A stretch of DNA of 64,000 bases from Flectonema sp. DT1601 (taxonomy: Eukaryota), in NCBI GenBank assembly GCA_964019425.1, contig OZ025801.1:310001-374000 (forward strand). The letters are read 5' to 3'. The notes under the pieces are model-generated. The model did no database searches, had not been told where the DNA came from, and saw only the letters and a program-made list of their open reading frames with translations. The translations under genes were made by a program, and so were the position numbers. Shown here piece by piece: positions 2,004-44,427 of the stretch (position 1 is its first letter; every line of letters starts with the position of its first letter).

Positions 2004-2037
<34 letters not shown>

Positions 2038-2782: not shown

Positions 2783-2816
<34 letters not shown>

Positions 2817-4075: not shown

Positions 4076-6633
4076 ATTGTTTTTCCCCGTTTTTATTTTT
4101 TTTTATGGTGTCCTTGATCTTATTTAGTTTATTTTTCGATTAATTAGCGTCGACGTTTTAAATCTACTGTAAGGCTGCTGGGAATCAAATTGACCAAAAC
4201 AGCGCCATAAAAAAACGATAGTTGAACTGCACTATTTTTTCTCCGTATTTTTCCTGTGTGAAAAGAGTAAAGAACATTGGTGGGATACCTCTCACCTCAC
4301 TGCCAACCAAAGACAAGTTATTCTTAACACCTTTTTTTTTTTTTTGTAAGCCAGCAACCGCAGTTAGCAGGGATGAAATAACTTACTAGGAATAGGTGAA
4401 TGATGCTTAGTTCACAGTTAGGTAAATATTCAGACCGGCAGCATTACGTCCCTGTCGGCAATGAGTCTTTTCCCACTTTTTTTCCCCCTTCTTTTTTTTT
4501 GCTTGTTTTCCCAAAACAGGATTCTCACGTAGTAATATTCTAGCCTTCAATATGCTGCAGAAAAACCTGGTCAGGTGTGTCGTACGTCTTCGCATTGGGC
4601 AATGTGTTGCGAACACTTGTTGCAAAAAAAAGAAAAAAAAGTATTCATTCAAAAGTACCGAACTATCTTAGAAATAATACTTTCAGTAATCTCTTTCTGA
4701 CAGATTCGGATACGGCTACGGATTGGGTCCTCTGTTGCTGTGAGTTACCTACTCATAATGTACAGCAAATTAGATTGCTGGTATTATTTTTTTTCTTTTT
4801 CTTCTTTTTTATCATCTAAATTGTTGATCAGTATCACAGTGGCCACAACAACATTATTTTTTTGGTTTAGTTGCTGCTGTTTTCCGAAAATACTGATTTC
4901 TTTTTTTATTCTCTCTCTTTTCTCTCTTTTTATTTTTTTTTGCATTCTCTCAACTAAAACAACAAGGCAATACTTGTTTTCTCTGAGGGGACTCTTGTTC
5001 ATCGGTGCTTACTTTTTGTCCTTCTTTGTTCATCCGTTTCTCGGTATTCCTGTCTTATGTCTCCAACAGCCATCAGTTTTCAAAAGGAAAGAGGAAACCT
5101 GATGTTAGCTGTTAAGAAGATGTAGTGTTGGTGGGAATTACTTGAAGAATGACGTGAGATGAGCGCTATCTTATTATTTTATCACTGTTTGAAGGGAGTC
5201 CTCTCTTCTCTTGTTTTCTCTCTTTTATCTGAATTATCGGAAAGGGAAAAAAAAAAAAAAAGAAAAAAAAAAAACGCGTGAAATTTTGTGTCTTTTTTTA
5301 CAAGGGAGGTTTCAGGCAGCAGCTGGCAAGCAAAAGAAAATAAAATAAACAGCAGTAGAATGCTTCGTCTTCCTTTTCTTTATATCGATATGCCAGTCAG
5401 CTTGTCTTGCTTTCCCTTTCACCAGATCACTTCTCATATTTATGAAGTGATTCATCTTTACCTTTTTTATTATAAAAACTTGCTTACTTACTTTATGATC
5501 GCCGCATGAATGCTCTCAGTTTGCTATTCCTTTTGTCTTCACAGCTGGGGTATAGTTTTTGTACGGGCAGGGTGGTCTTTATTGATTTTCTATTAGATTT
5601 AAACATAAACTAATATAAAGAAAATAGGCTGTAATCTTTTTAAGGCTCTCCTCACACGAGTGTCTTATTACAGCAACGAATTCACGAATTAACAGCCTGT
5701 AAGATGGGATAGGTTTACTGGTCAGCTGTTCTCTACAACAATAACAACAAACAGAAACATGTTCCTCCTTTTTTTTTATTTTTATTTGAGTACCAACGTA
5801 CTCGGGAATGTAAAAAATGATTAATATTTGCGACCTTTTCGATTCTTATCCTTTTTTTTGTTTATGCACTCATTTTTTTTTTTTTTTTTTTTTTTTTTTT
5901 GCACCTAAACAAGTATTGTTTGGCTCCTCTGTTGCTGTGAGTTACCTCCCTAAAGCACAACGTTGGATGTCTTGACTAACTTAAAAATTCCTATTTTAAA
6001 TAAACCTTTTCTATCTTTTGACAGCTGATTATCCAATTGGATTTTAGTCTTTTGTCGATATTGAAGAAGAGGTCAACTTGACCTTCTTATTGTGCTCAAA
6101 GTGACAAGGTATCTGATCAAGGTGTCTTTATATTGTGTGGGTCTCTCGCACTTTCCTTTAGCACTTTTTAACCCATCACTAGTTTTGTATTCTTTGGTTT
6201 AGAATCCAAGAAAAATAAAAAAATATAAAAAAAAAAAAAGTAATCACAATTTGCATCCTAACCTCTTCCGTTTGTCCTTGGTCAAAGAATAGGAGCACGT
6301 TCGTAGCTTCCGGTTCTTTTTCATTCTTGATTTTGTAGAGGGGGAAAAAAAAAAAAAAAAAAAAAGAATAAAAAAATTAAAAAAACTAAAGTCACGTAAT
6401 TAATTCATACACTCCGATGGGTGGTGGCGAGTGTTGTGTAATTTTCCCTTCCTTTTTATCGTTTCATGATTTTTTCTACCCCGGCTTATTATTATTTTTA
6501 TCATTCTCTTTCACAGGTTTTGTTTGATAGATCCAGTCCATATATTTATGTCTTTATAAATATGCTCAATCGATCTGTCATTCTGAAAATAAATAAATAA
6601 ATAACAATAATTATTTTCATAAAAAGGTCCAAC

Positions 6634-20632: not shown

Positions 20633-21249
20633 ACGTATTGTTGTTGCTGTGTATTCTTTTACCCCCGTTTTATTTTCCGGTAGCCTAACCTTTAAAAAAA
20701 AGGACACCATAGCAGAAGGTCAGGTGATCCGGCCCGGGATACTCAGGCACCCAGAGCTCACAGGGGCCACCGGGTTTTTATTTTTTCCTTAGTGGCATGA
20801 TTTCCCTTTACCCCCATTTCCTTCGAACTTCCCCCGTTTAGTCTTTTCACGCATGGGGGGATTATAAGTTCAGGTCGCCTGAAATGTATTAACAGTATCA
20901 GCCCCGCGAGTTACTCGGGGAGCTCCCATGCAATGTGTGGAGAAAGAGGCCATCCCTCCCCCTACCTCTCTGCTTTACTACGTCGTTTTTTGTGTGTGGC
21001 ATTTCTTTTCTTATATTCTTTTCTTTTCAATCTTGTTCCTTCACACGCGGTTGTTCGAGCGGTTGTGAACCACCTTGGGTCTCTTACGGTCTCCAAGCTA
21101 CTGTTGTGCGAAGAAACAAATCTGTTGGTGCGGTGGCCTTCCGACGCCACCTGGACCGCAACTCGTTCACAGTGCCCTACCCGGTTCCCACCGGACCGCC
21201 TGAGCGACGGGATCCATGGGATTCAAAACCCTAAACACTGGTTAATTTT
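20560..21249 (+). mobile_element. 690-bp non-autonomous retroposon (SINE/SIDER-like) with a 20-bp TSD
   Basis: TTCCTGTCCACAAATTACTT is duplicated at 20540-20559 and 21250-21269. No credible ORF. HDV-like fold at the 5' end and a short T-rich 3' end. Confidence 0.85.
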
Positions 21250-21622
21250 TTCCTGTCCACAAATTACTTCTCTTGACCTTTCAAGTTTTAATAGTGTAGC
21301 TACAATTCAGGATTGTTTCTTGTCTTGTTGTTCAAAAATTACTTCTCTTGACCTTTCAGGTCTTAGTAGTGTAACTACAATTGGGGATTGTTTCTTGTCT
21401 TCCTGTCCGCAAATTAATTCTCTTGAGCTTTCGGGTCTTAGTAGTGTTGTCACCATTGGAGATGGCTTCTTATCGTTCTGTTCACAAATTACTTCTCTTG
21501 ACTTTTCGCGTCTTCGTAGTGTTGTCACTATTGGAGATGGCTTCTTATCATTCTGTTCACAAATAACAGCTCTTGACTTTTCGGGTCTAGGTAGTGTAGT
21601 CACTATTGGGGGTAGTTTCTTC

Positions 21623-22009
21623 GTCTGCTGGCTTCGTGCTTACCCAGGCAAGGGGGTAGGAACATTTCAAAACTAAAAGGCATTCAATCGCAGTTATCAA
21701 ACACCTGTTGAGACTGTGTGAGCGAACATGCATCTTCTTCCGAAAAGCACCACAAACTGTAGTGTTGCCAACCCAGATGGAAAGGTGGTCGGCCTTTGCA
21801 ATTCCTTTGAGTGTCTTCCCAAGAGCGTCCGCTTCAAGGATATTTATATGTCGGTCTTCACCAGCAGGCCATGCCGCACCAAGGTACTCCAACTCACCTG
21901 TTTCCCAAACAATGGCACCAAAACATCCCTGCAATGAGGCATCTACAAATCGGCAGTCCTCCCCTCTTTCTGCTCAGGCATTCTCCCCTTCTGCACAGCA
22001 CCGATCCAC
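21623..22009 (-). mobile_element. Inverted RNase H fragment of the YR retrotransposon
   Basis: Reverse complement matches ~28128-28530 and ~29745-30130 (HINILEADALGK). Carries the WVGN variant of copy C. Confidence 0.9.
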
Positions 22010-22020
22010 TCACAATTAGT

Positions 22021-22058
22021 ACCAACGATTCTAAAGCTACAGTTTCTGTACTTTATTG
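22021..22058 (+). other. Spliced-leader (SL) exon sequence fixed in the genome at the 5' end of retrotransposon copy A
   Basis: ACCAACGATTCTAAAGCTACAGTTTCTGTACTTTATTG: euglenozoan SL 3' core CAGTTTCTGTACTTTATTG with a Diplonema-like 5' part (comparison from memory). Joined directly to TTCTCACACCCC. Confidence 0.9.
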
Positions 22059-24138
22059 TTCTCACACCCCTGTCTTCATCACAAGAAAACTTATATTTAA
22101 ATTAAGTTAAAGAATGACTCGTGTAAATTTTGAGTTCCCTGAGTTCTTAATTGAGACTTGGAAGGCGCAGATGGGTGAGGAACCACCAAAGAAGCTCGAT
22201 AATATCAATCTGGACGAGCTGGTTGCAAGCATCCCCTTTAGCATCGACTTAAGTACATTGAGATCCGACAAGGAGACAAGAAGGTTGATCCAAGGCACAC
22301 TGGCCATGTGTCTCGGGATCTCCAATGATGCGGCCAAGACACTTTCAATGAATAAGTGTCTAGTAATACTTGGTGTGTTATCAAGGAGCCGCCTGCAGTT
22401 GGTCAACCAGAGCGCCGCCCGGATGAGCAAGCGGATATCTAAGGGGGGGTCGGGTAGGCTGGTGACGCACGACGAGGCGGAGGATGCGATGGGATCGCTG
22501 CAGCAGAGCACAGACACACTGAGAAGTGATACCAAGCAGGGGTTCGACTCGCTGAGAAACGCAGACGGCGTTTAGCCAGTATCAGAGGGAGAGCCAATCA
22601 GTGAGGAGAAGGGTTGGGGAGGCCACTGAAAAAGCCGAGAACATCGGAGGCATGTGGGAGGCCTTCAGAGAACAACAGACCCAACAACAACAAGCTAGCG
22701 TTACCCAGCAAATCACACAACAGCAGAGAGATCAGCAAAAGCAGAATGCAGAAGTGATCCAGAAAATCTTACAAGAAATAGCAGATCTGAAGACGGCTCA
22801 ACAAGTTCCAGTAGTCGGGGGGGCAGCACAGCAACTACCAGCACCGGGGTCGAACGAAGCGATGACACGGGAGGTGACTGATCCGTCTGCAGGCAGGGAT
22901 GTAACAAAGTGGGCATCCGTTATGAAGTCAGGAAAGGCCGAGGCACTGATCCATGGGATCAGGGAGCGATATGTGAACGGTCTGGAGTACAAGGTTGGTG
23001 GGGGCCAGCTACTTCAGGCAGTTGAAGAACTTCGTTCTCGGTTTGGAGTACGTTGAAGGGTGGGAGGAGAACCCGCACTTTGTGGAGTTGGGGAACGAGC
23101 TGTTGGAGCAACTGCGGATGCAGTATTACTTTTGCAAGGATGGTACGAAGAGATCAGAGTTGGAGATGATCTTAGAAGTTGCATCGGGGGACCCTCTGGA
23201 GAAAGCAAACGCAATAGCGAAGAGAAATAGAAATGCGAAGATGCAACAACCGAAACGGAAAGGGGGGAGATCGTTTGTCTCTACGTATCCATCGTCGGGA
23301 AACGGGAGAGGGTTCGCGAAGTGACCAGCCGACCGGACCCTGCAAGTAACAACAAAACCAACGTTCCTAAAACGAAGGTTAGACACGCAAGTATTGGAAA
23401 CATCCCCATTGCCAAAGTTAAAGTTGAGAAAGCCCGCAAGACTTATGCAGAAGCACTCAAGACAGGTGTTGAGGAGCAGCCGACTAAAAGCAAGGTTAGG
23501 AGGATCTGTAAGTTTAATCGTTCAAGACCCGGGCAACATTGTAAAATCCGCAGTCCGAGGATTCCCCAGCGGAAGGGAGATGAAAATAAGCTCAGTTGGA
23601 ACAGAAGAGATCGCAGATTCAAGGGAAACAATGCCCTCAGAAGGATTAGAAGGAAATGTGGTTGGGAAGATCCTGTTGGACATGATGGAGGGATGCCCAG
23701 AGGGGACGAAGAGGCGGCATGCCGAGGATTCCGTCACATACATGGAGGCGACAGAAAAGCTTCAAGAAACACTGGGGAAGATGTGGGCCTCAAAGACAAC
23801 AGCAAGCAGGCGGAATCTGTGGAGAAGATTTCGGGCCTGGGCAAGGGAAAAGGAGAAACCAGCAAACGCAAGCTCGGCTGTTCTGTTCGTGATGGCGACA
23901 GGTGTGGCAGTGCAAGGGCTTCTCTCTTATGCAAAGAGTCTGTCTGCAGTGATGGGGGCTGTTGAGCTTAGCTGCAGCACTGAGGGCGAACGGGGCGGCA
24001 ATACCGCTGGAACAGGCAACGCCAATGACAAGACCTGGTGGATTGGGCAAGGGGGCAAGACTTAAAGACCCACTTGGCAATGCTAGTGTGCTGGAAGACT
24101 GCATCAAGATGGGGCGAGACCGCAGCGCTCTCAAGGGA
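22059..24138 (+). mobile_element. YR retrotransposon copy A: SL-headed, frameshifted gag, 3'-truncated inside YR
   Basis: Homologous to 24349-26532. gag is split into ORFs 22114-22575, 22601-23056 and 22995-23324. Homology ends at TCAAGGGA. Confidence 0.9.
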
Positions 24139-24190
24139 TCAAAATTCCATTTAGGTAATTTGCCACCGAAACTGAGCACCAAACAAAAAC

Positions 24191-24263
24191 CGCCGTCAGC
24201 GGGTTTTGAACCCTCGACCGCCATTCTTGCAGACCGGCGTTCTATCAATTGAGCTATGTAGCC
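24191..24263 (-). promoter_or_regulatory. Degenerate tRNA(Cys, GCA)-like sequence with A box, B box and T5 terminator in the element's 5' leader
   Basis: 73 nt with canonical tRNA spacing: GGCTACA TA GCTC AATTGATA GAAC G CCGGT CTGCAAG AATGG CGGTC GAGGG TTCAAAA CCCGC TGACGGC G, then GTTTTT. Acceptor stem only 4/7 paired. Confidence 0.7.
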
Positions 24264-24329
24264 ACATAATCGACGTTTCTTTTATTTCTATAAGTCAATG
24301 TCTCTATTAGTTTTCTGACGATATCAAAT

Positions 24330-24348
24330 ATTTCTATCCCTTTATCAG
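24330..24348 (+). promoter_or_regulatory. SL trans-splice acceptor of the retrotransposon mRNA (second copy AG at 28994-28995)
   Basis: TTTCTATCCCTTTATCAG|TTCTCACACCCC. Copy A has the SL joined at exactly this position. Confidence 0.88.
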
Positions 24349-24403
24349 TTCTCACACCCCTGTCTTCATCACAAGAAAACTTATATTTAAATTAAGTTAA
24401 ATA

Positions 24404-25666
24404 ATGACTCGTGTAAATTTTGAGTTCCCTGAGTTCCTAGTGGAGATTTGGAAGGCACGAATGGGTGAGGAACCGCCAAAGAAGTTGGATAATATTAATT
24501 TGGATGAGCTGATTGCAAGCATCCCCTTTAGCATCGATTTAAGTACATTGAGATCGGACAAGGAGACGAGGAGGTTGATCCAAGGCACACTGGCTATGTG
24601 TCTTGGGATCTCAAGCGACGCAGCCAAGACACTTTCGATGAATAAGTGTCTAGTAATACTGGGGGTTCTATCAAGGAGCCGCTTGCAGTTGGTCAACCAG
24701 AGCGCCGCCCGGATGAGCGAGCGGATATCCAAGGGGGGGTCGGATAGGTTGGTGACACACGACGAGGCGGAGGATGCGATGGGATCGCTGCAGCAGGGCA
24801 CGGACACGCTCCGAAGCGACACCAAGCAAGGATTCGACTCGTTGAGAAACGAATGTCAGAAGGAATCCCAATCGGTGAGGAGAAGGGTTGGGGAGGCCGC
24901 CGAGAAAGCTGAGAACATCGGGGGCATGTGGGAAGCATTCAAAGAGCAACAGGTTCTACAACAGCAACAACAAGATAACATCATCCAGCAGCTCACACAG
25001 CAACAACAAGATCAGCAGGACCAGAATACTGCATTGTTCCAGAGCATCAGTCAACAACAACAGGTCCATCAGGAACAACAGGCAGCCGTGATACAAGGTA
25101 TCATGCAGGAATTAGCAGGTCTGAAGAAGAGGTCTACCACAACTCAGCAAGGGCCAGTAGCAGTACCTCAAGCACCAAAGACGGAAGAAGAAGAAGCAAC
25201 ACAGGAGGTGACCGACCCATCTGCAGCCAGAGATGTAAAAAGATGGGCAGCAGTAATGAGTTCGGGAAGGACCGAGGCTCTGGTACACGGGATCAGAGAG
25301 AGGTATGTTAACAGCCTCGAATACAAAGTTGGGGGAAGCCAACTTCTCAGTTATTTCAAGCAATTGAAAAACTTTATACTCGGGTTCGAATATGTAGTAG
25401 CGTGGGAAGAAAACCCCCACTTCGTAGAGCTAGGTAACGATTTGTTGGAGCAGCTGCGGATTCAGCATTACTTCTGCAAGGATGGGACGAAGAGATCCGA
25501 GCTGGAGATGATAATGAAAGTGGCATCGGAAGACCCGTTGGAGAAGGCAAACGCCATAGCTAAGAGGAACAAACATGTGAAGCTGCAGCAACCAAAATGG
25601 AAAGGAGGGAAGGCGTCTGTTTCCACATACCCAGCATCGGGAAACGGGAGAGGGTTCGCGAAGTGA
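24404..25666 (+). CDS. Gag-like ORF1 of the YR retrotransposon
   Basis: 420-aa first ORF after the splice acceptor, with a Q-rich coiled-coil. The Gag assignment is positional. Confidence 0.75.
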   Translation: MTRVNFEFPEFLVEIWKARMGEEPPKKLDNINLDELIASIPFSIDLSTLRSDKETRRLIQGTLAMCLGISSDAAKTLSMNKCLVILGVLSRSRLQLVNQSAARMSERISKGGSDRLVTHDEAEDAMGSLQQGTDTLRSDTKQGFDSLRNECQKESQSVRRRVGEAAEKAENIGGMWEAFKEQQVLQQQQQDNIIQQLTQQQQDQQDQNTALFQSISQQQQVHQEQQAAVIQGIMQELAGLKKRSTTTQQGPVAVPQAPKTEEEEATQEVTDPSAARDVKRWAAVMSSGRTEALVHGIRERYVNSLEYKVGGSQLLSYFKQLKNFILGFEYVVAWEENPHFVELGNDLLEQLRIQHYFCKDGTKRSELEMIMKVASEDPLEKANAIAKRNKHVKLQQPKWKGGKASVSTYPASGNGRGFAK

Positions 25667-28600
25667 CCAGCCGACCGGACCCTGCAAGTAACAACAGTAC
25701 TCCCAAGACGAAGGTTAGAGTACAGGAATATGCAAGTATTAGAAACACTCCCATTACCAAGGTTGAAGTATTTAAGGAAACCAGCAAGACTTATGCAGAA
25801 GCGCTCAAAACAGGTATTGAAGGACGGCCGACTACGAACAAGGTTAAGAAGATCCATAAGTTCGATCGTTCGAGGCCCGGACAACAATATAAAATCCGCA
25901 GTCCGAGGATCCCCCAGCGGAAGGGAGATGGAAGCAAATTCAGACAGAGAAACGGGAGAGATAAATTCCACACCAATCACAGTCACAACGGATACAATGC
26001 CCTCAGAAGAATTAGGAAAAAACATAGTTGGAAGAATTCTGCTGAACATGATGGAGGGATGCCCCGAGGGGGCAAAGAAGCGGCATGCGGAGGATTCCGT
26101 TACATACATAGAAGCGACGGAAAGACTTCAAGAAACACTAGAGAAGATGTGGGCCTCAAAGACAACAGCAAGCAGGCGGAATCTGTGGAGAAGATTTCGG
26201 GCCTGGGCAAGGGAAAAGGAGAAACCAGCAAACGCAAGCTCGGCTGTTCTGTTCGTGATGGCGACAGGTGTGGCAGTGCAGGGGCTTCTCTCTTATGCAA
26301 AGAGTCTATCTGCAGTGATGGGGAGAATCGGAATAGAAAACGGACCTCTGTTGAGCTTAGCTGCAGCACTGAGGGCGAACGGAGCGGCAATACCACTAGA
26401 ACAGGCAACGCCAATGACAAGTTTCGACCTGGTGGATTGGGCAAGGGGGCAAGACTTAAAGACCCACTTGGCAATGCTAGTGTGCTGGAAGACTGCATCA
26501 AGATGGGGCGAGACCGCAGCGCTCTCAAGGGACCAGTTCATCTCTGTAAGTCCGTCAGAGATCATTATCGATTGGTTCCGCACGCCGAAGGGAAGGAGGG
26601 CAAACCCTTACTCGCCAAGCAGATGGACGGTGATAAAGGGGAATCACACAGAAGAGATAAAGATCTTGCTGGATGCGATGGGGGAGTTCAAAAAACTACA
26701 CCCGTGGGACACGTCAAAATTAGTGAAAACGTTCCAGCAGGACGGCAGGATGAAAAGATACACCGCCCACTCAATAAAAAGGGGTGCGATAAGTCATCTG
26801 TTGGAAGTTCTGGCATCCGACCAAGAGCAGCAAGGACTCACAGAAGGGCTGATAAGCAGGCTGGCCAAGCATGCAGGAGTGTCGGCTCTTTCGGACACCA
26901 CGCTGAGGTACGGGGGGAACCCAATTGCAATGGCGAGGGCGTTAAAGACAGGGGATGTCACCTGTTTCCTGTAGTTGATAGATCAAAAAATGCGAGCGAA
27001 CGGGATGTGATGCGGAGCGTAGCAGCTCAGTTCACACACAGAACAAAGAGCACGCGCATTCCCATAACGAAGGAGGAGATATCTTCACCACTACATGTGG
27101 CCCCTACACCTAAGATGGATGTTTCAGCTGTGAGGGGGAGGATGCTGCCATCGGTCCTGAAGAGGTTTGATTATGTTTGGGACCTCACCTTCTTTCCTAA
27201 GGATTCTTCTGTCAATGCACGGCTCTCGAGGAGGGCAACTTCGAAGTTGGCAGGGAAACATGCAAGAGAATTGGTTGAGTGTGGTATTGCAGTGCCGAGT
27301 GATTCTGTACCGCTGTCTCGGAATGTACCATTTACAGTGTATGAGGAGAGGGAGACGGGGAACAGACAGCGGTTCATCCTCTGGACAAAAGAGCAGAACG
27401 AACTGATCTCGTCTGGGGGATATGAACCATTCGTTCCACTGCAGCACATTTCTTGTTACCTGGATGCTGTACATTCGGAGGTGGCATCCTGCAGGGACTT
27501 CAAGACTGGATTCTACCAGGTCTGCATACCTGAGGAGTCAACTTCACTCTTCAGTTTCTCTGATTCAGCTGGGAAGGTTTATTCTTTGACTCGACTTCCG
27601 ATGGGTCATGTGTGTGCCCCAGAACTGATGAACACCATCGCTGCAGTAGTTGCTGGTGACCCGCTGTTCGTTAAGAAAGAATTTGCGGAGGAGGAAGTTG
27701 GGATTCACTGGTGGATTGATAACATTAGGTTATTTGGTCCCAAGGAGAAGGTTAAATGCGCAGCTGAGAGGATGGACTCCTTTGCCAGAATGGCAAACAT
27801 CACATGGAAACCAAGTGATACTGTGGATCTCTCTCCGGAGTATGAGTTCTTGGGGGTCACCTTTGATCACCATACAGACAGGGTGAGCTTGGGGACCAAG
27901 ATTGGGAGAAAAATCAAGAACACCAACCTTGATTCATTGACTGCATCGGAGTTGGAGTCCTTAGGAGGTCGCCTGTTGCATGCCAGCTCCATTGTTGGAG
28001 TTCCACCTGGGAAGTACTGGTTTAGCTTGAAGTATCTTCGCAGAGTCACAAATTACCCGAACAAGGGAACCCTACAAGTACAGCAGGTACTAAAATTGCC
28101 CCGTTCAGTAAGGAGGGAATTAGAAATGTGGATCGGTGCTGTGCAGAAGGAGAGAATAATTATGCCTGAGCAGAAAGAGGGGAGGACTGCCGAAGTGTTT
28201 GTAGATGCCTCATTGCAGGGATGGGGAGGTGTCATTGTTTGGAAAACAGGTGAGTTGGAAATTCTTGGTGCGGCATGGCCTGCTGGTGAAGACCGACATA
28301 TAAATATCCTTGAAGCGGACGCTCTTGGGAAGACACTCAAAGGAATTGCAAAGGCCGACCACCTTTCCATCTGGGTTGACAACACTACAGTTTGTGGTGC
28401 TTTTCGGAAGAAGATGTGTGTTCGCTCACACAGTCTCAACAGGTGTTTGATAACTGCGATTGAATGCCTTTTAGTTTTGAAATGTTCCTACTCCCTTGCC
28501 TGGGTAAGCACGAAGCTAAACCCAGCAGACATTCCTTCTCGAGAGGAAGTCTCACACGGAACGAGAGCGAAGGTTGAACAAGCGTTGGGGTGGTTCTTTA

Positions 28601-28704
28601 ACTCGCGTGGTGGTGGTGGTGCCGGTGTCCCGTCGAATCGAAACGGCCCGGTACAACCCCTACGCAGAAGTAATCTGCACCACAGTGTAGATTCTTCTAA
28701 GTGA
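25597..28704 (+). CDS. Reverse transcriptase / RNase H ORF (probably entered by -1 frameshift from gag)
   Basis: RT motifs RDFKTGFYQ, RLPMG, WIDN, EFLG. DIRS-type RNase H motifs VFVDAS..GWG, HINILE, WVDNTT, NPADIPSR. Confidence 0.92.
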   Translation: MERREGVCFHIPSIGKRERVREVTSRPDPASNNSTPKTKVRVQEYASIRNTPITKVEVFKETSKTYAEALKTGIEGRPTTNKVKKIHKFDRSRPGQQYKIRSPRIPQRKGDGSKFRQRNGRDKFHTNHSHNGYNALRRIRKKHSWKNSAEHDGGMPRGGKEAACGGFRYIHRSDGKTSRNTREDVGLKDNSKQAESVEKISGLGKGKGETSKRKLGCSVRDGDRCGSAGASLLCKESICSDGENRNRKRTSVELSCSTEGERSGNTTRTGNANDKFRPGGLGKGARLKDPLGNASVLEDCIKMGRDRSALKGPVHLCKSVRDHYRLVPHAEGKEGKPLLAKQMDGDKGESHRRDKDLAGCDGGVQKTTPVGHVKISENVPAGRQDEKIHRPLNKKGCDKSSVGSSGIRPRAARTHRRADKQAGQACRSVGSFGHHAEVRGEPNCNGEGVKDRGCHLFPVVDRSKNASERDVMRSVAAQFTHRTKSTRIPITKEEISSPLHVAPTPKMDVSAVRGRMLPSVLKRFDYVWDLTFFPKDSSVNARLSRRATSKLAGKHARELVECGIAVPSDSVPLSRNVPFTVYEERETGNRQRFILWTKEQNELISSGGYEPFVPLQHISCYLDAVHSEVASCRDFKTGFYQVCIPEESTSLFSFSDSAGKVYSLTRLPMGHVCAPELMNTIAAVVAGDPLFVKKEFAEEEVGIHWWIDNIRLFGPKEKVKCAAERMDSFARMANITWKPSDTVDLSPEYEFLGVTFDHHTDRVSLGTKIGRKIKNTNLDSLTASELESLGGRLLHASSIVGVPPGKYWFSLKYLRRVTNYPNKGTLQVQQVLKLPRSVRRELEMWIGAVQKERIIMPEQKEGRTAEVFVDASLQGWGGVIVWKTGELEILGAAWPAGEDRHINILEADALGKTLKGIAKADHLSIWVDNTTVCGAFRKKMCVRSHSLNRCLITAIECLLVLKCSYSLAWVSTKLNPADIPSREEVSHGTRAKVEQALGWFFNSRGGGGAGVPSNRNGPVQPLRRSNLHHSVDSSK
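25639..25683 (+). promoter_or_regulatory. Putative -1 programmed ribosomal frameshift signal (G_GGA_AAC + stem-loop)
   Basis: Slippery heptamer correctly phased in gag (TCG GGA AAC). The -1 frame is the RT ORF. 5-nt spacer, then stem AGGGTTCG/CGGACCCT. Identical in copy A (23297-23341). Confidence 0.75.
25730..26974 (+). CDS. Tyrosine recombinase (YR), overlapping the RT ORF and in frame with gag
   Basis: WKTASRWGE (R), PKG (K), YTAHSIKRGA, LAKH and TTLRYG (Y) catalytic pattern. Confidence 0.9.
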   Translation: MQVLETLPLPRLKYLRKPARLMQKRSKQVLKDGRLRTRLRRSISSIVRGPDNNIKSAVRGSPSGREMEANSDRETGEINSTPITVTTDTMPSEELGKNIVGRILLNMMEGCPEGAKKRHAEDSVTYIEATERLQETLEKMWASKTTASRRNLWRRFRAWAREKEKPANASSAVLFVMATGVAVQGLLSYAKSLSAVMGRIGIENGPLLSLAAALRANGAAIPLEQATPMTSFDLVDWARGQDLKTHLAMLVCWKTASRWGETAALSRDQFISVSPSEIIIDWFRTPKGRRANPYSPSRWTVIKGNHTEEIKILLDAMGEFKKLHPWDTSKLVKTFQQDGRMKRYTAHSIKRGAISHLLEVLASDQEQQGLTEGLISRLAKHAGVSALSDTTLRYGGNPIAMARALKTGDVTCFL

Positions 28705-28785
28705 TCTCAGACTTGTTAACTGCATGTTCATTCAATTAAGTATACTTCTCTTTCCCAGGTGCATACAGTATAGGAAGGCTAATTA

Positions 28786-30350
28786 TCAAAATTCCATTTA
28801 GGTAATTTGCCACCGAAACTGAGCACCAAACAAAAACCGCCGTCAGCGGGTTTTGAACCCTCGACCGCCATTCTTGCAGACCGGTGTTCTATCAATTGAG
28901 CTATGTAGCCACATAATCGACGTTTCTTTTATTTCTATAAGTCAATGTCTCTATTAGTTTTCTGACGATATCAAATATTTCTATCCCTTTATCAGTTCTC
29001 ACACCCCTGTCTTCATCACAAGAAAACTTATATTTAAATTAAGTATGAACCATTCGTTCCACTGCAGCACATTTCTTGTTACCTGGATGCTGTGCATTCG
29101 GAGGTGGCATCCTGCAGGGACTTCAAGACTGGATTCTACCAGGTCTGCATACCTGAGGAGTCAACTTCACTCTTCAGTTTCTCTGATTCGGCTGGGAAGG
29201 TTTATTCTTTGACTCGACTTCCGATGGGTCATGTGTGTGCCCCAGAATTGATGAACACCATCGCTGCAGTAGTTGCTGGTGACCCGCTGTTCGTTAAGAA
29301 AGAATTTGCGGAGGAGGAAGTTGGGATTCACTGGTGGATCGATAACATTAGGTTATTTGGTCCCAAGGAGAAGGTTAAATGCGCAGCTGAGAGGATGGAC
29401 TCCTTTGCCAGAATGGCAAACATCACATGGAAACCTGTGGATCTCTCTCCGGAGTATGAGTTCTTGGGGGTCACCTTTGATCACCATACGGACAGGGTGG
29501 GCTTGGGGACCAAGATTGGGAGAAAAATCAAGAACACCAACCTTGATTCATTGACTGCATCGGAGTTGGGATCCTTAGGAGGTCGCCTGTTGCATGCCAG
29601 CTCCATTGTTGGAGTTCCACCTGGGAAGTACTGGTTTAGCTTGAAGTATCTTCGCAGGGTCACAAATTACTTGAACAAGGGGACCCTACAAGTACAGCAG
29701 GTACTAAAATTGCCCCGTCCAGTAAGGAGGGAATTAGAAATGTGGATCGGTGCTGTGCAGAAGGAGAGAATAATTATGCCTGAGCAGAAAGAGGGGAGGA
29801 CTGCCGAAGTGTTTGTAGATGCCTCATTGCAGGGATGGGGAGGTGTCATCGTTTGGAAAACAGGTGAGCTGGAAATTCTTGGTGCGGCATGGCCTGCTGG
29901 TGAAGACCGACATATAAATATCCTTGAAGCGGACGCTCTTGGGAAGACACTCAAAGGAATTGCAAAGGCCGACCACCTTTCCATCTGGGTTGGCAACACT
30001 ACAGTTTGTGGTGCTTTTAGGAAGAAGGTGTGTGTTCGCTCACACAGTCTCAACAGGTGTTTGATAACTGCGATTGAATGCCTTTTAGTTTTGAAATGTT
30101 CCTACCCCCTTGCCTGGGTAAGCACGAAGCTACATTCCTTCTCGAGAGGAAGTCTCACACGGAACGAGAGCGAAAGTTGAACAAGCGTTGGGGTCGTTCT
30201 TTAACTCGCGTGGTGGTGGTGGTGCCGGTGTCCCGTCGAATCGAAACGGCCCGGTACAACCCCTACGCAGAAGTAATCTGCACCACAGTGTAGATTCTTC
30301 CTTGTGATCAGACTTGTTAACTGGTGCATACAGTATAGGAAGGCTAATTA
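28786..30350 (+). mobile_element. YR retrotransposon copy C, internally deleted (~3.0 kb; lacks gag, YR and the RT N-terminus)
   Basis: Leader 28786-29044 is near-identical to 24139-24397 and is joined at a shared T to the 27421-equivalent position. The RNase H D-to-G change (WVGN) and a frameshifting deletion near 30131 suggest it is inactive. Confidence 0.9.
28838..28910 (-). promoter_or_regulatory. Second copy of the tRNA(Cys)-like A/B-box element
   Basis: One substitution relative to 24191-24263. Confidence 0.7.
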
Positions 30351-37203: not shown

Positions 37204-40200
37204 TTAGTTTGAGGCTTTCATCCTATTCGCGTCTTCCATTTGACAAGAGACATCAGTTTGAGTTCCGACTGTTTGAAAGTCACAGTAAGAAATTCCCATC
37301 GACTTCTGAAGTCTTTGAAATCCTTCCAAAAGTAATGCACCCGACTGGGGCTTTGTTTGTTTGGTCTTCTGACTGTCGTCAACTTGTTCCTCATCACCAA
37401 CTTCACCAGCCTCAGATTGTATTGAGTCTGACGATAAACTAATAACATCTCCGTCAACATATTCAAAAATAGAATCAGGAAAGGTCCTCGCTTCAACAAT
37501 CGGTTCTGTTTCCAATGTCGGAACAGGAACACTATCATGAAAACCTGACTGACCAAATGAATTTCTCGCAAAATATCGTGTCGCACCTCCTCCCTGATAA
37601 GACTGTGGATAAAATGGTTGTCCCTTCGACCATTGTTGTCGGGTGTTGGGGTTGGTTTGTATGTTGTCATAATATGGCGTATTGTGATCCATATTCTGAG
37701 GAACAGTAAAGTAAACGGTCCCGTTTTGATTTCTCGTAGGCTGAACTTGCGGTGGAAAGTTGGGAACCGGTTCCGGATTTGGAAGTCCGACTGGTTTGGG
37801 ATGTTGAAGTGGTTGTGTCTGTGGTTGTGGTTGCGGCTGTTGTGATGAACTGACCTCCTCAGGTTGAACCACTTCTGATTCTGAACTCTGTAAAGTGTGA
37901 CCTGCCTTTGATAAAGCATCAGAAACATCTTCACACTTCTTTATGACAACTGATAATTCATGTTTACCTTTTAGAACTGTGAGTCCTTTTACCTTTCTTT
38001 TGTGTTCTGCTTCTGTCTGTTTATGTTGGGCAACAGCCAACTCATACTTTGCTGCAAGCTCTTGGCTGAGGACAGGTTCACTCGTTGCCTGTATTGCAAA
38101 TCTGATGTCACGAATTTCAGCTGCGGCGGTTTCTTCTCGCTGTCGTTGAATATCAACAAGTTCCTGATGCTTTTGATTAATGAGGTGATTGATTCCCAGC
38201 AGCTTCTTTTGAGCTTCATCTTCATGCTGCTGTCTGATGTTTTCTACTTCGCGTTGCTGCTTATCAACTTCGATTAGAAAGTTGTGTTGTTTTACTAAAG
38301 CAGACAGCTGTTGTTGTTTTCTGGGATTACCTTCTTCGAGTTCTTTCAGTGTCACTGTAGCAGCTGACCACGTTAACTTTTGTTGTCTTTGTGAGCTCTC
38401 AGCTTGTTGTTGTTTTTGTTGAAGTAAAGAAATGAGATCAAGTTTTTGTTTTACTTCAGACAAGTCATCTGTTTTGCGTTCCATTGCGATTGTAATTAAT
38501 TTGATGACTTCCTCTTCGATAGCATCCGACAGTTGCTTCTGAAGTGCTGCAGTTTTGGTTTTTAATTTGCTCTGCATCACTATTAACTCATCCTGCTGAG
38601 AAGGTGTTTGCTGCTGCAGCTTTTTACGTTGAACAAAAGCAGCCAAAGTAATTACTTCCTGTTGTTTTTCAAGAAGACCGTTTTGTTGTTGTTTCTTTTG
38701 AAGAAAAACAACGAATTCGTACTTCATTTTAAGAACTGCTACTTCCTGCTTTCTTTGAAGTGTATCAGGTTCGCTAAGTTTAGCTCCGATAGCCGCAAAC
38801 ATTAAAGGGAGTTCTAATTGGATTGCACTCGGTAGCTGTTGTTTTTGAATCAATCCCGCTAGTTTTTGATTTAAACTATTAATGTCTTGCATCTTTTGTG
38901 GCGTTTCTGGTTCCATTTGTTTCCTTTCAATGGCTGCAGCCAACATCATCGAGTCGCTTTGCCCGCCAGCTATTACAGCGATCCGTTGCTTCAGAGCAGT
39001 GATTTCCTGTTGTTTTTGAGGACCGTCAGGTTCCTGTTGTTTTGCTTTAATAGCCGCACTCAGTTCACTTAACTCGGATATCGCTGATGGCGGGTGTTGA
39101 AAAAAAGCTGATATTAATTCGTATCTATTCCTCAAAATGTTCAACTCCTGCTGTTGTTGTGGTGTGATTGGCTCTTGTTGTTTTTTTTGATAGGCAGCTG
39201 ACAAATCAGCCAATTCTTTTTGTTTTTGTGCAGCTGCTCCCATATGTTGAGGAGCAGCCAACTGTACTACCGGTGGTGTGACGGGTTGTGATAATGGTGT
39301 TGGGGTTTGTGGTGTGTCTTGCTGGTTGTTGACTGATAGAGACTCCTTATCCTGAGAGACGGTCGCAATACTCTCCTCACTCTCCTCTTCGTGCTGTGGA
39401 TCTCCTGTTTCATCTGACGATGACTGAGTTTGTGAAGACAGTTGTTGTTGTTTTCGTAATTTCGCTAAAGCTTTCTTCTGTACTCCATTCGCGTGAAGTA
39501 CATCGCTAAGTCTTTGACGAATAGTTTCCAGTTCTAGTCGATTTTGTTTTGTATTCTCATGCAGACGTTTCTTTCTCAGGGCTTCCCTCAAAGCGGGTAT
39601 TGCTAAAGTGTTGTACTCATCATTTAGAATTGCTAATTCCAGTTCCTGTTTTGCACTAGTTGGCTCCTCTTCCTTCTTCTTAATGGCAGCAACTGCAGCA
39701 GCCAATTGGTTATATGAGTTGTGAGGCGATTGTTCCTGTACAGGAGCAGGTATGGGATCAGGCTGTGGTAAAGCAGGAGCGGGCTGTGCAGGAATAGGCT
39801 GTTTAGCTGTGTCAGTCTGTACCGGAGCGGGCTGTGCAGGAATAGGCTGTTTAGCTGTGTCAGTCTGTACCGGAGCGGGCTGCACAGACTGCTCAGGTTG
39901 GGGCTGTTCGAGTGCAGAAACAGGCTGCTCGGAAACAGTCAGCTGTCCAGATGTGGGCCTTTCGAGTGCATCAGGAACAGGAGCAGGAGCAGGCTGTACT
40001 GAAGGAGCAGCTACTCGATGTGCACCAGTATCATGTTGGAAGAATGCTGATAGTAGTTCCTGTTTGTTCATCAAACTGGCTAACTCTTGCTGTTGTTGTA
40101 ATGATTCTGGTTCTTGTTGTTTCTGTTGAATAGCAGTAGTGACAGACGCTAATTCCTGCTGCTTTTGTTGGAGGTGGACGGCATCTTGTTTTTTTATAAA

Positions 40201-43200
40201 GTTATTGAGTAAGTCTAATTTTTGTGCTTGCAAGAGAAGCTGTTGGTGTCTTTGTGGTGTGTCAGGTTGCAGTTTAAGTTTTTTAATTGAAGACGTCACC
40301 GAAGATAATTCCTGCTGCAGATCTCCCTTTTTGTACAGAGCGCTGGCGACGAACTCAAATGACTTTTTCAAACCATTCAAGTGGAGTTGTCTTTGAGGTG
40401 TTTCGGGTTCTTGCATCTTCTTTAACATGGACCCTGATATGATACCCAATTCGTGTTGTAAACTTTCCGTTCCTTGCATTTGAAATAAGATTGCCAACTT
40501 CTGCTTCAGAGTACTTAACTCCTGCTGCCTTTGTGTCGATTCTGGTTCCTGTTGTTTCTTTTGAATTGCTGTTGCTACAGCTGCCAACTCTTTTTGTAAA
40601 ACTTCCGGACCATATTGTTGAATCTTTCTAATTAAATCTAATTGTAGTTCATATGATGTTAGCTCTTGTTGTTGTTGAGGTGTTTCGAGTTCTTGTTTCT
40701 TTTTATTAATCGAAGCTTCCAAGCTTTGTAACTCCCGACGTCTATGTAGTGAAGCTTTGACTGAGTCAAACTTCTTCTTAAGAGAAGTCAGTTCCGATAG
40801 TTTTTCAGCGCTTTCTGGTTCAAGTTTTTTCTTTTCGATTGCTTCCATCAAAGCGATGCTCACTGTAGAGTCGTGTTGATGTTGCAAATCATTAAGTTCT
40901 TGTTGCTTTATAGCACTTTCAGGTTCTTGCCTTTTAAACTGAATCGCTGCAGTCAAAGCAGCCAGTCGTTGGGTTTCTCCTGGTCCGTGTTGCTTGCGTG
41001 CAGCATCTTCTTGTTGTTTCTTTAGGTTTGACATTAGTTCTTCTTTTAGCTTTAGCGTTTCACTGTCTGGTTGATTTGATGATGCCAACAACTCTGCTTC
41101 CTGTTTCTGTCGAAGTATTGCCTGGTCTTGTTGTTGCTTTATGGATGCTTCGAATTCAAATTTCTGTTGGTCGTCTCGTTGTTTTAGTAATTCCATCTGT
41201 TGCTGTTGCGCTGCCATCAAAGCCGCCTTTTTGCTTTCCATCGGATCAGCTTTTGGTGGCATCACTGCTGCTCTAGCTGCAGCTAACGCTTTAGCTGCAA
41301 ACTCTTTTTGCTTTGCCAGCTCATTATTCATTTCAATTGTTCTCATTTGTGATTTCTGAAGTGTCAGATCCCGAGTCTGTTCCAGAGGATGGTCAGTAGT
41401 CGGATCGACAACACCACCGTAGGAGTTCTTCACAGCAACAATTTGACTTGAGAGTTCCAGTTGCTTATCGAGTTCCTGTTTTAACAAACTCTGAGTTTGG
41501 AGATATTGAGAGTGTTGCTGAGATTGTTGTTGGGCCTGTTGCAATACTTGCTGTTTCTGCTGAGCTGGTTGCAGTTGCTGGTTTTGTCCAGCCAGAAGTT
41601 GTTGCTGCTGGTTCAGCAGCTGTTGCTGTATTTGCTGCATCTGTTGTTCTGGGTTCAGAGGGTGTTGCTGAACCTGTTGCTGTTGTTGTTGCTGAGGGTG
41701 TTGTACAATAATTATTTGCTGCTTTTGTGGTTGCTGATGATGTTGCTGCATTTGTATTTTATCAGCCGGTTGCGGGCGCTGCTGCATAACTTGTAAACGA
41801 TGCACCGGTCCAACGACTTGTTGCTGTTGTGGCTGCAGTACAATTCGTTGTTGCTGTTGTTGTGGTCGTTGTTGCGGTTGTTGCAGTACAATTTGTTGTT
41901 GCTGTAGTTGTTGTTGTGGCTGCTGCAGTATAATTTGCTGTTGTTGTTGCTGTGGTTGCTGTTGTTGTGGTTGTTGCTGTGGTTGCTGTTGTTGTGGTTG
42001 TTGCTGTTGCTGTTGTTGTTGTTGTTGTTGTTGTGGTGGCTGCTGCAGTATAATTTGCTGTTGTTGTTGCTGTGGTTGCTGTTGTTGTGGTTGTTGCTGT
42101 GGTTGTTGTTGTGGCTGCTGCAGTATAATTTGCTGTTGTTGTTGCTGTGGTTGTGGTTGTTGTTGTTGTTGTTGTTGTGGCTGCTGCAGTATAATTTGCT
42201 GTTGTTGTTGCTGTGGTTGTGGTTGTTGTTGCTGTTGTTGTGGCTGCTGCAGTACAATTTGTTGTTGTTGTTGCTGTGTCTGCTGTAGTTGTTGTTGTTC
42301 AAGTTGCTGCTCTTCCTTTATCTGCTTAATGAGATGCTGTTGTTTTTGAATCATTTCTTGTATCTCATCTTGTTCAGTCTGTTGATCATGTTGGGCTAAC
42401 TGAGCCTTTAATTCTTTATTTCGATTCAACTCCTCGTTAATTAAATTTTGATATTCCTTCTGTTGTTCACTTGCTGGAACAGTTGGCACACTACCAGCCG
42501 TAATATTCGGTACCCTAGCGGAAGGATTGATTAAGACTGTTTGAGAGTTCACACCCGGAGGTTTCATCCACTCAGGGTAGCCGACACTTATTTGAGATGG
42601 CAGTGCTGTTGGATCAACGGGCTGTCCGGATGTTGATTGAGTGCCTGGTTGTATTTGTACTCCTTCTGGAGCTTGACCTCCTTGAGTTGGTATCGCCTGA
42701 ACTGTCATTACTGGAGTTGGTTGAGCTGACGCTCTATTTACTGCTGGGCCTACAATTTCAGGTGCCCTTCGGTATTGTGGATGGCGACCCTTTTTCAATC
42801 CATGCGGTGCTTTTGGAGCTGTGGCCCCCTCTGTTGTCCATCCCTCCCCATGGAATGCTAACATCAAAGACATGAAGAACGTCTGCTCTTCAGAAGCAGT
42901 TGTTGGTGGAGGCTTTCCTTCAGGTGAGGCAATCAGCTGAAAAGGAAAGTAAGAAACCGGAACGATAGTTTTCATATTGACTATAACATTATAACCACCG
43001 CGATCCATAAAGTGAAGAATGATATTTATTGAGTTTTGTTGAGAGATCTGAGTTTCCATAATTCGAGCGTAACGAAGATCTACCGGAGTCAGAGTGAGCT
43101 CCTTTAGTACCCCAGCTAAGAACTGATAGAAATCAAAGTCTGGATAATCATTCGTATTTAATGATATCATTATCTGTGGGATCGTTTGGTCAGCAGTCTT

Positions 43201-44106
43201 CACTTCTTTTGCAACTCGCGGTGGTTTCAGTTGAATTGCTACGTTTTTTGTTCGCTCAACTAACTTCACACACTGAGTTCCAATCCTCGCTACTTGATCT
43301 CTAAACTGAACATACAACTGACCTGTTTGACCAAATCTTTCGTAGCGAACTATCAAAGAGTTGAAGCAAACCTCAATTGCCTCAATTAGTTCACCGTCAC
43401 TCCAGTGGGATGGAATGTTTTCAAATATTGTGAGACAACAAAACCTTTTCACGCAGGATGAACAAACAGTTTTATTACATTTCGTACAAGTTTGAAACTC
43501 TGTTTCTCTCTTTTCTTGAACTTCTGGAGGATTCTTATTAACATCAACAATTAGCTGAGGACATGGGCAATGAACAGACCGTACTGTGTGTCCAACATGT
43601 CGGATGGCGCATTTTCTACAAAATCGTACTTTGCATTTGTGACAGAGCTGAACCGCCGGGTATTGGTTGCAGCATCCTTTTCGTTTAAAAGTTTCTAAAA
43701 TGTCGCATTTCAATGGAGCGTTTTCGTATCCGTCATCGTATTTCTTGAGATCTCTATTAACGACCATCGGAAATCCAGCACAACAATAGTCTCTGTGGTC
43801 AACTGATTCATTGACCTTTGCTTCAAGTACCCAATTTTCAAAAAATGAAATCCAATCTTCCTTTGTTTTGTTTTTGCTTTTGTTTGTTTCAATTAATTTT
43901 CCCAAATAAACAAACGGGTCATTGGGTGATTCAATTAGGCCTCTGATATCTGTAGCTACTAGAAGTAATAATGGATGGTGGAGACCTCCCTGGAGATACC
44001 TTCTAAGTACTTTAGCTCTCGGAGTCTTTAAATGTTTTATTAGAATTTCAAACATTGCCGAGTGAATCGCTGGTTCTATAATATTCCCAGCTGTTGATTC
44101 CGACAT
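37204..44106 (-). CDS. 2300-aa glutamine-rich protein with N-terminal Cys/His (B-box-like) zinc-binding region and many QQEPETPQxQQEL repeats
   Basis: Uninterrupted ORF with LCHKCKVRFCRKCAIRHVGH, a polyQ/QP tract at ~41800-42300 and a 48-nt tandem duplication near 39776-39880. Confidence 0.85.
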   Translation of the reverse strand: MSESTAGNIIEPAIHSAMFEILIKHLKTPRAKVLRRYLQGGLHHPLLLLVATDIRGLIESPNDPFVYLGKLIETNKSKNKTKEDWISFFENWVLEAKVNESVDHRDYCCAGFPMVVNRDLKKYDDGYENAPLKCDILETFKRKGCCNQYPAVQLCHKCKVRFCRKCAIRHVGHTVRSVHCPCPQLIVDVNKNPPEVQEKRETEFQTCTKCNKTVCSSCVKRFCCLTIFENIPSHWSDGELIEAIEVCFNSLIVRYERFGQTGQLYVQFRDQVARIGTQCVKLVERTKNVAIQLKPPRVAKEVKTADQTIPQIMISLNTNDYPDFDFYQFLAGVLKELTLTPVDLRYARIMETQISQQNSINIILHFMDRGGYNVIVNMKTIVPVSYFPFQLIASPEGKPPPTTASEEQTFFMSLMLAFHGEGWTTEGATAPKAPHGLKKGRHPQYRRAPEIVGPAVNRASAQPTPVMTVQAIPTQGGQAPEGVQIQPGTQSTSGQPVDPTALPSQISVGYPEWMKPPGVNSQTVLINPSARVPNITAGSVPTVPASEQQKEYQNLINEELNRNKELKAQLAQHDQQTEQDEIQEMIQKQQHLIKQIKEEQQLEQQQLQQTQQQQQQIVLQQPQQQQQQPQPQQQQQQIILQQPQQQQQQQPQPQQQQQQIILQQPQQQPQQQPQQQQPQQQQQQIILQQPPQQQQQQQQQQQQPQQQQPQQQPQQQQPQQQQQQIILQQPQQQLQQQQIVLQQPQQRPQQQQQRIVLQPQQQQVVGPVHRLQVMQQRPQPADKIQMQQHHQQPQKQQIIIVQHPQQQQQQQVQQHPLNPEQQMQQIQQQLLNQQQQLLAGQNQQLQPAQQKQQVLQQAQQQSQQHSQYLQTQSLLKQELDKQLELSSQIVAVKNSYGGVVDPTTDHPLEQTRDLTLQKSQMRTIEMNNELAKQKEFAAKALAAARAAVMPPKADPMESKKAALMAAQQQQMELLKQRDDQQKFEFEASIKQQQDQAILRQKQEAELLASSNQPDSETLKLKEELMSNLKKQQEDAARKQHGPGETQRLAALTAAIQFKRQEPESAIKQQELNDLQHQHDSTVSIALMEAIEKKKLEPESAEKLSELTSLKKKFDSVKASLHRRRELQSLEASINKKKQELETPQQQQELTSYELQLDLIRKIQQYGPEVLQKELAAVATAIQKKQQEPESTQRQQELSTLKQKLAILFQMQGTESLQHELGIISGSMLKKMQEPETPQRQLHLNGLKKSFEFVASALYKKGDLQQELSSVTSSIKKLKLQPDTPQRHQQLLLQAQKLDLLNNFIKKQDAVHLQQKQQELASVTTAIQQKQQEPESLQQQQELASLMNKQELLSAFFQHDTGAHRVAAPSVQPAPAPVPDALERPTSGQLTVSEQPVSALEQPQPEQSVQPAPVQTDTAKQPIPAQPAPVQTDTAKQPIPAQPAPALPQPDPIPAPVQEQSPHNSYNQLAAAVAAIKKKEEEPTSAKQELELAILNDEYNTLAIPALREALRKKRLHENTKQNRLELETIRQRLSDVLHANGVQKKALAKLRKQQQLSSQTQSSSDETGDPQHEEESEESIATVSQDKESLSVNNQQDTPQTPTPLSQPVTPPVVQLAAPQHMGAAAQKQKELADLSAAYQKKQQEPITPQQQQELNILRNRYELISAFFQHPPSAISELSELSAAIKAKQQEPDGPQKQQEITALKQRIAVIAGGQSDSMMLAAAIERKQMEPETPQKMQDINSLNQKLAGLIQKQQLPSAIQLELPLMFAAIGAKLSEPDTLQRKQEVAVLKMKYEFVVFLQKKQQQNGLLEKQQEVITLAAFVQRKKLQQQTPSQQDELIVMQSKLKTKTAALQKQLSDAIEEEVIKLITIAMERKTDDLSEVKQKLDLISLLQQKQQQAESSQRQQKLTWSAATVTLKELEEGNPRKQQQLSALVKQHNFLIEVDKQQREVENIRQQHEDEAQKKLLGINHLINQKHQELVDIQRQREETAAAEIRDIRFAIQATSEPVLSQELAAKYELAVAQHKQTEAEHKRKVKGLTVLKGKHELSVVIKKCEDVSDALSKAGHTLQSSESEVVQPEEVSSSQQPQPQPQTQPLQHPKPVGLPNPEPVPNFPPQVQPTRNQNGTVYFTVPQNMDHNTPYYDNIQTNPNTRQQWSKGQPFYPQSYQGGGATRYFARNSFGQSGFHDSVPVPTLETEPIVEARTFPDSIFEYVDGDVISLSSDSIQSEAGEVGDEEQVDDSQKTKQTKPQSGALLLEGFQRLQKSMGISYCDFQTVGTQTDVSCQMEDANRMKASN

Positions 44107-44427
44107 ATTTACTCTTTGCTAACCTAATCTGAACCTACTTTGAGAGAGAGAAAAGTAAAACATGAAAAAATAATCAAAAAACTCCTCCTATTCTGTTGGG
44201 ATCGTAGTTTTGCAAGAAGATAATAATACAGCTTGCTTCTGAATAGCTGCGGGTTGATCAAAATAATATCAATTCAGGGTAGAATATTACCTTGAATTTA
44301 ATTTAATAACAGCAAACAAAGAGAGTTAATTATCAGTCGAGTTGGATAGAATTAGATAGACTGAATAATAGCAAAGAGAGGAACACCAGAAAGTACTGGT
44401 GAGGTAGGTCTGTTTGGCGGACATATA

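Follow-up and report, generated by a model that had tools for sequence, protein, structure and literature searches.

A gag-end junction predicted to branch three ways

We analysed a window of 64,000 nt (positions 310,001 to 374,000 of contig OZ025801.1, assembly GCA_964019425.1) from Flectonema sp. DT1601, which holds an element that is, judged by its reading frames and homologies, a VIPER-type tyrosine-recombinase (YR) retrotransposon (hereafter copy B; features lie on the plus strand of the window unless stated otherwise). At the end of its gag-like open reading frame (ORF), one mRNA would give rise to Gag through termination, to a fusion of Gag with the reverse transcriptase (RT) through a -1 frameshift, and to a fusion of Gag with the recombinase through readthrough of a UGA stop codon, a model to which we assign a probability of roughly 64%. 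Two known recoding mechanisms are thereby joined in an arrangement that we did not find described. The signals at the junction are real and general across the family; from them, Gag-RT is very probably made by frameshifting, and Gag-YR is probably made by readthrough.

ORF1 (24404-25666, 420 aa, ending in TGA) owes its gag label to its position, its size also being fitting. It is followed in the same frame by the recombinase (25667-26974, 435 codons), while the RT/RNase H frame (25564-28704, 1046 codons, 1019 of them from the shift site) lies at -1 and is open over all of YR. When we rechecked coordinates and frames, the layout given in a preliminary description of the window was reproduced throughout: a GGGAAAC in phase with gag near the gag end (G_GGA_AAC, 25639-25645), RT in the -1 frame of gag, and YR in the gag frame, separated from it by TGA-C alone (25664-25667), such that the YR frame begins at the very next base. 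That gag and YR share a frame is no independent evidence, because RT is -1 to both. The predicted frameshift heptamer ends 18 nt ahead of the stop, the predicted readthrough codon. After a 5-nt spacer, within the 5-9 nt usual for a stimulatory structure, comes an 8-bp stem with two G-U pairs (25651-25658 with 25676-25683), whose 17-nt loop contains the gag stop; its length and spacing are as first described, while its stability is no better than that of shuffled sequences (z +0.08 to -0.84).

The same junction is kept in copy A (22051-24141; heptamer 23297-23303, TGA 23322-23324), a broken paralogue with 79% identity, which indeed has ACG at the position of ATG 25730 and, in addition, ACG at the position of the RT-frame ATG 25597. 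An identical block in the two copies, put at about 55 nt in the preliminary description, measures 60 nt (25637-25696). Taken alone it is weak as proof of selection, because it is one of eight identical A/B runs of at least 25 nt, the longest of 138 nt. The junction is spanned without any mismatch by contigs from two sequencing runs of two studies (25524-25753 and 25564-25714); the former may derive from the source sample.

According to the proposed mechanism, a single spliced-leader mRNA would be translated from ATG 24404, and the majority of ribosomes would terminate at the UGA to release the 420-aa Gag. Some, halted at G_GGA_AAC by the structure that lies 5 nt past it, would slip by -1, cross the stop out of frame, and traverse the YR overlap into RT/RNase H to yield a Gag-RT of 1433 aa, whereas part of the remainder would decode the UGA with a near-cognate tRNA to yield a Gag-YR of 856 aa. 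Gag would package both fused enzymes at set ratios. YR retrotransposons have no protease (PMC3783388; here as below, statements on cited articles concern passages of them), so both enzymes would be expected to stay tethered to Gag.

Conservation of the predicted frameshift signal in related elements

For comparison, we combined 59 fetched loci with copies A and B; of these 61, five without the YR N-terminus, nine open at the 5′ end and three with less than 60 nt upstream were removed, leaving 44 evaluable loci. A type-I layout, defined as an upstream ORF in the YR frame that one stop, and no extra one, separates from the immediately following YR, was found in 37 of the 44, corresponding to 26 clusters at 60% YR identity. 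The other seven comprise four members of a clade with swapped frames (see below), one locus (L014) apparently derived from the L009 type by a 1-nt indel, and two loci without a long upstream ORF (L018 and L036), which were set aside. A CCHC knuckle, present 15-46 residues ahead of the stop in 17 of the 37 type-I loci, marks these upstream ORFs as gag; in five of the 26 clusters the contig ends less than 100 codons upstream, and the knuckle is still seen in two of these.

In 19 of the 26 clusters, a strict heptamer in phase with gag lies among the final 60 nt of that ORF; in either other phase there is none in any cluster. Synonymous recoding of the same residues gives an expectation of 2.1 clusters, and the rate elsewhere in gag corresponds to 2.7% per locus. 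The comparison among relatives that the preliminary description had proposed thus found its heptamer and stop context kept far beyond chance, in pattern and not to the letter: GGGAAAC, GGGTTTT, AAAAAAC and CCCAAAC replace one another across the tree while pattern and phase are kept, and TGA is followed by either C or A. GGGAAAC, GGGTTTT and AAAAAAC, the three commonest, are named among the most shift-prone heptamers (PMC5009743). Over the YR core, the -1 frame contains 0 stops versus 189 expected, compared with 314 versus 294 expected in the +1 frame. In all loci except copy A, L029, L031 and L051 (33 of 37), the -1 frame stays open over the stretch that starts 16 nt ahead of the gag stop and finishes with YR.

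The search for pseudoknots, defined as crossed helices beginning a few bases past the heptamer, covered 24 of the 26 clusters and gave a mean z of -1.18, with 14 clusters below -1 and five below -2. The stem of copy B has the position of stem 1 in the pseudoknots predicted for relatives, and in most solutions the stop lies inside the predicted structure. Within one subfamily of eight sequences, stem 2 is paired throughout, with compensatory changes in three of five pairs, a count that leans in favour of the structure because it was drawn from the same sequences as were scored. Past the stop, C[AC][AC]GT was found in 17 of 26 clusters versus 4.9 expected (the motif was chosen after inspection of the data). 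In copy B it takes the form GCAAGT at 25684-25689, with a second copy at 25732-25737, both also kept in copy A; GCAAGT likewise occurs twice in L003, L005 and L030. We read C[AC][AC]GT as a nucleotide-level signal because it is found in all three phases of relatives, which also led us to reject it as a protein motif; a role of GCAAGT as a GC-AG splice donor was deemed unlikely by eye.

Evidence for a probable readthrough of the gag stop

The gag stop is TGA in 24 of 26 clusters, compared with 24 of 50 stops that end YR or RT in these elements (p 1e-4, optimistic like all p-values here, since the clusters share ancestry). TGA followed by C or A accounts for 24 of 26 clusters versus 13 of 50 control stops, and TGA-C for 15 of 26 versus 7 of 50. 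The two remaining clusters have TAG-CAA and TAG-G, which we take to be the contexts of tobamoviruses and of murine leukemia virus. Between the stop and its first ATG, the YR frame contains 0 stops, against 12.5 under a synonymous null, 41 under a composition null and 54 observed in the third frame; it is open from the first codon past the stop in all 37 type-I loci. That first ATG lies 0-136 codons past the stop, and in L041 it falls within the folded domain.

Out-of-frame ATGs ahead of the first YR-frame ATG are not depleted (9 versus 7-9 expected), and a scanning signature was rejected, the first ATG after the stop being in the YR frame in 19 of 26 clusters where background gives 18.3. In copy B, a T-rich tract precedes the gag ATG alone (13 T in 20 nt, compared with 6-9 for nine other ATGs and 8-15 for host genes). 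A reassigned code was likewise rejected: the standard code gives 15 uninterrupted host ORFs, terminated by TAA (11), TGA (2) or TAG (2), and in the elements themselves RT frames of about 1000 codons are without TGA, while YR and RT often terminate at it. Of the three products that the preliminary description had derived from one mRNA, the frameshift product came out very well supported and the readthrough product supported, the latter still being the weaker arm, as had been said at the outset.

Observations against the model and alternative explanations

Besides the shared ancestry of the clusters, a number of observations weigh against the three-way model. The strict heptamer is missing in seven of 26 clusters, some of which have relaxed or G-run candidates; only five of the 24 clusters searched have a pseudoknot z below -2; and copy B has no pseudoknot under the search criteria, its stem being unremarkable against shuffles, as noted. 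In nine of 26 clusters the stop is TGA-A and not TGA-C. A 3′ structure past the stop of copy B was not found (25667-25760 folds at z +0.48), conservation there being confined to the GCAAGT motif, and the stop region of some relatives base-pairs in the structure, which could constrain its sequence without readthrough. Linker substitutions between copies A and B (16/27/18 by codon position) favour the third position of the RT frame, while those from pooled pairs (189/186/252), which are not independent, favour the YR frame. The 150 nt past the stop are slightly pyrimidine-rich in relatives (p 0.003; p 0.09 for T-richness). TGA is directly followed by ATG in three of 26 clusters (about 0.6 expected) and in Trypanosoma cruzi, which favours reinitiation in these cases. 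Because type I by definition has no extra stop, L018 and L036 are possible counter-examples, and the Tca2 junction of Candida, another gag stop before an enzyme gene, failed in yeast reporters (PMC2194720).

Several of these points would fit a scheme in which RT is made by the -1 frameshift and YR is a free protein with a start codon of its own, used either in reinitiation past the gag stop or on a further trans-spliced mRNA. The stop-adjacent ATGs speak for it, with the YR of T. cruzi annotated from the base after ORF1 (PMC5146736), as does the mild pyrimidine excess; the AG within GCAAGT or GCCAGT could be an acceptor; and 22 of 26 clusters either show an in-frame ATG 16 or more codons before a conserved Trp or fall outside the late-ATG list (L001, L015, L024 and L041 among 37 loci, L024 not being a cluster representative). 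However, a free YR leaves unexplained both the stop-free linker before the first ATG and the bias to TGA-C/A; the scanning signature was not seen, and the YR ATGs of copy B have no T-rich tract; CACGT variants of the motif are without AG, and ATG 25730 is ACG in copy A. We regard it as unlikely. If, instead, Gag and YR are fused but the stop is bypassed otherwise, by a -1 shift and a +1 shift back, by a hop or by selenocysteine insertion, the same fusion and a partly open linker would result, and the sister clade, which seems to shift +1 at UGA, suggests that ribosomes of these hosts may change frame at stops. Against this stand the YR frame open from the first post-stop codon in 37 of 37 type-I loci and a second shift site that was not seen, no systematic search for one having been made, while TAG in three loci argues against selenocysteine; we consider such a bypass highly unlikely.

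A scheme with no recoding at all, in which each of gag, YR and RT is an ordinary ORF with its own spliced mRNA and RT starts at ATG 25597 or after YR, would agree with the monocistronic mRNAs that euglenozoan trans-splicing yields. ATG 25597 is present in copy B and in P0002, and in T. cruzi the annotated RT ORF begins ahead of the gag stop, further starts that would shorten it being given as alternatives (PMC5146736). In copy A, however, ATG 25597 reads ACG; only seven of the 37 loci possess an RT-frame ATG that does not lie past the gag stop; and neither the in-phase heptamers (19 versus 2.1) nor the open -1 frame (0 versus 189 stops) is explained. We give this scheme almost no weight. Frameshifting into RT together with readthrough into YR stays our preferred model. 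As a wider and more tentative proposal, which we rate at somewhat less than even odds, VIPER elements, among them those of T. cruzi, Crithidia, Bodo and diplonemids, would share the three-way switch; a pseudoknot enclosing the stop and ending in C[AC][AC]GU would drive the -1 shift and, once unwound, promote UGA readthrough; and the sister clade would have been rewired such that three outcomes arise at a single UGA: termination, RT by readthrough and YR by a +1 shift.

A sister clade with swapped frames, and TATE elements

In that sister clade, a single cluster of six loci, gag is followed after TGA by RT in frame, with YR in the +1 frame (junctions at L035:990-1090, L042:60-160, L046:1840-1940, L047:925-1020, L053:185-280 and L055:850-950). 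RT is open for 768-1077 codons past the gag TGA, and its first Met comes 178-342 codons on. TCC, TCT or ACC immediately precedes the stop, and in each of the four loci folded a long stem starts 2-14 nt past it. UCC_UGA is the usual site of the antizyme +1 frameshift (PMC5009743). Here one UGA may serve termination, readthrough and a +1 shift, a lead from a single clade. Two TATE copies (PMC6681497, additional file 11) show, by eye, A_AAA_AAC with TAA immediately behind it at the apparent gag end, which suggests that TATE may also frameshift, in another arrangement.

Identity of the element and its relatives

The recombinase frame of copy B consists of a linker followed by Cre-like core-binding and catalytic domains. 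Its predicted structure has a predicted local distance difference test (pLDDT) score of 84, with residues 1-51 mostly at low confidence. A sequence search of the PDB with the YR profile was weak (top E 0.035); the fold search with the model then decided, Cre/Tre recombinases being the best matches (E 3e-7). In the homologue alignment, R192, K221, H281 and Y328 are invariant and R285 and H315 nearly so; the R-K-HxxR-H-Y residue set and the Cre/integrase fold are thus both present. The RT frame matches RVT_1 in Pfam at E 3.4e-4, under the curated cut-off, and its homologues bear RT and RNase H domains. ORF1 had no match in the Pfam scan and Atlas scores all below 0.9, and it has no CCHC knuckle, compared with 17 of the 37 type-I loci that do; its C-terminal part resembles element proteins of Diplonema papillatum (E about 1e-13).

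Near-identical copies and D. papillatum proteins top the lists of YR and RT homologues, with T. cruzi lower, which makes a diplonemid host probable; no named Leishmania protein was matched in these searches. A quick YR tree of 59 rows (leaving out copy A, L031, L036, L051 and the five loci without the YR N-terminus, and having no TATE/Ngaro outgroup) groups the window copy with five D. papillatum proteins (Shimodaira-Hasegawa-like approximate likelihood-ratio test, 95), and the group containing D. papillatum nests in a 15-row group to which the T. cruzi pair also belongs; many terminal branches have lengths close to 1 change per site. In D. papillatum, P0073-P0077, P0080, P0083 and P0089 are annotated with gag-like and RT parts in one chain, which may be gene-model artefacts across the junction or natural fusions. 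Members of the same euglenozoan family were also seen inside bacterial metagenome-assembled genomes (L058, L059 and P0110), most likely mis-binned eukaryotic contigs. Beside matched elements lie uncharacterised long ORFs (L021:3685-7065 and L027:3541-4878) and an upstream RT end (L039:1-1110), indicating tandem elements. Among viral contigs, there were 66 pattern matches, none of them a relative.

Repeats and neighbouring features in the window

Copy B is flanked by split direct repeats. A1 (24138-24397, 260 nt) precedes gag and includes the T-rich tract, a candidate spliced-leader acceptor; RT is followed (28705-29044) by B1 (about 28705-28785) and A2 (28785-29044, 99.6% identical to A1), and then by a 5′-deleted RT/RNase H copy (29044-30350, 96% identical to 27421-28722) with a B2-like repeat at its end. 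The order after A1 is thus B1, A2, truncated RT, B2-like repeat, the truncated copy displacing the last, and this A1 ... B1 A2 B2 series is consistent with the VIPER/TATE plan (PMC6681497). Within the A repeat, a degenerate tRNA-like stretch (24190-24265 and about 28837-28912, minus strand) points away from gag. It was rejected as a tRNA: ARAGORN made no call at default settings and an ambiguous one at a low threshold, and Rfam gave one weak T-arm match.

Adjoining copy A, an inverted 389-nt RNase H fragment (21631-22009, minus strand; 93-94% identical to 28128-28516) comes after the 75-nt tandem repeat of a leucine-rich-repeat gene (about 21239-21626). Further along, a host ORF of 2304 codons (37204-44118, minus strand) has Thr/Ala-rich and Gln-rich repeats, with no match in the Pfam scan.

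Comparison with known systems

Recoding in VIPER, TATE or DIRS-order elements was not found described in the full-text literature covered, from which Lorenzi 2006, Poulter and Butler 2015 and the Repbase entries stand apart; the searched part of PMC5009743 has 0 mentions of DIRS, VIPER or tyrosine recombinase, and passages of PMC9210276, PMC8547959, PMC8226300, PMC8310308 and bioRxiv 2022.06.16.496473 contain no such description. How the YR/RT overlap of YR retrotransposons is expressed is not addressed in the literature covered, and for the VIPER group there is now a testable answer, with the site given to the base. If the model is true, frameshifting and readthrough branch from one junction to two different enzymes, VIPER gene models with a free YR and with RT from internal ATGs need correction, and kinetoplastid and diplonemid nuclear genomes, where one trans-spliced mRNA per gene is assumed, hold candidate programmed-recoding signals.

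Kinetoplastid VIPER elements share with the window copy the order gag, YR, RT/RNase H, the YR/RT overlap and the split direct repeats, and the passages of the articles concerned present the three ORFs as genes in their own right, with no mention of a slippery site, programmed frameshift or readthrough (PMC6681497, PMC5146736, PMC12278014); the present host, by comparison, is diplonemid-like. The T. cruzi consensus (ORF1 169-1509, YR 1510-2517, RT 1386-4214; PMC5146736) has the same frame geometry and a homologous YR protein. By eye, published Bodo, Crithidia and T. cruzi copies carry the same junction signals (PMC6681497), and in one C. fasciculata copy the frame could be traced, also by eye, into recognisable YR sequence.

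The -1 shifting of retroviruses and long terminal repeat (LTR) retrotransposons is alike in having an X_XXY_YYZ heptamer near the gag end and a structure a few bases downstream, leading to Gag-Pol (PMC5009743). Unlike there, the shifted ribosome would here cross 435 codons of overlapping YR, the gag stop lies inside the predicted stimulator, and a second fusion would branch from the same junction. A single in-frame stop before an enzyme gene is likewise known from gag of murine leukemia virus (PMC5009743) and from the gag-UGA-pol of Candida Tca2 (PMC2194720), where readthrough replaces frameshifting and does not, as proposed here, operate alongside it. The antizyme UCC_UGA +1 shift resembles the swapped clade (TCC, TCT or ACC with TGA, and YR at +1) and not the window copy (PMC5009743). 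In contrast to antizyme, readthrough of the UGA into RT would occur in the swapped clade as well. A single retroelement mRNA likewise yields three products through the double -1 frameshifts of mouse mammary tumour virus (MMTV) and human T-cell leukemia virus (HTLV) and through the envelope readthrough of SIRE1. Those are sequential events at separate sites that give nested polyproteins, whereas in the element studied here two alternative fusions would branch within about 30 nt.

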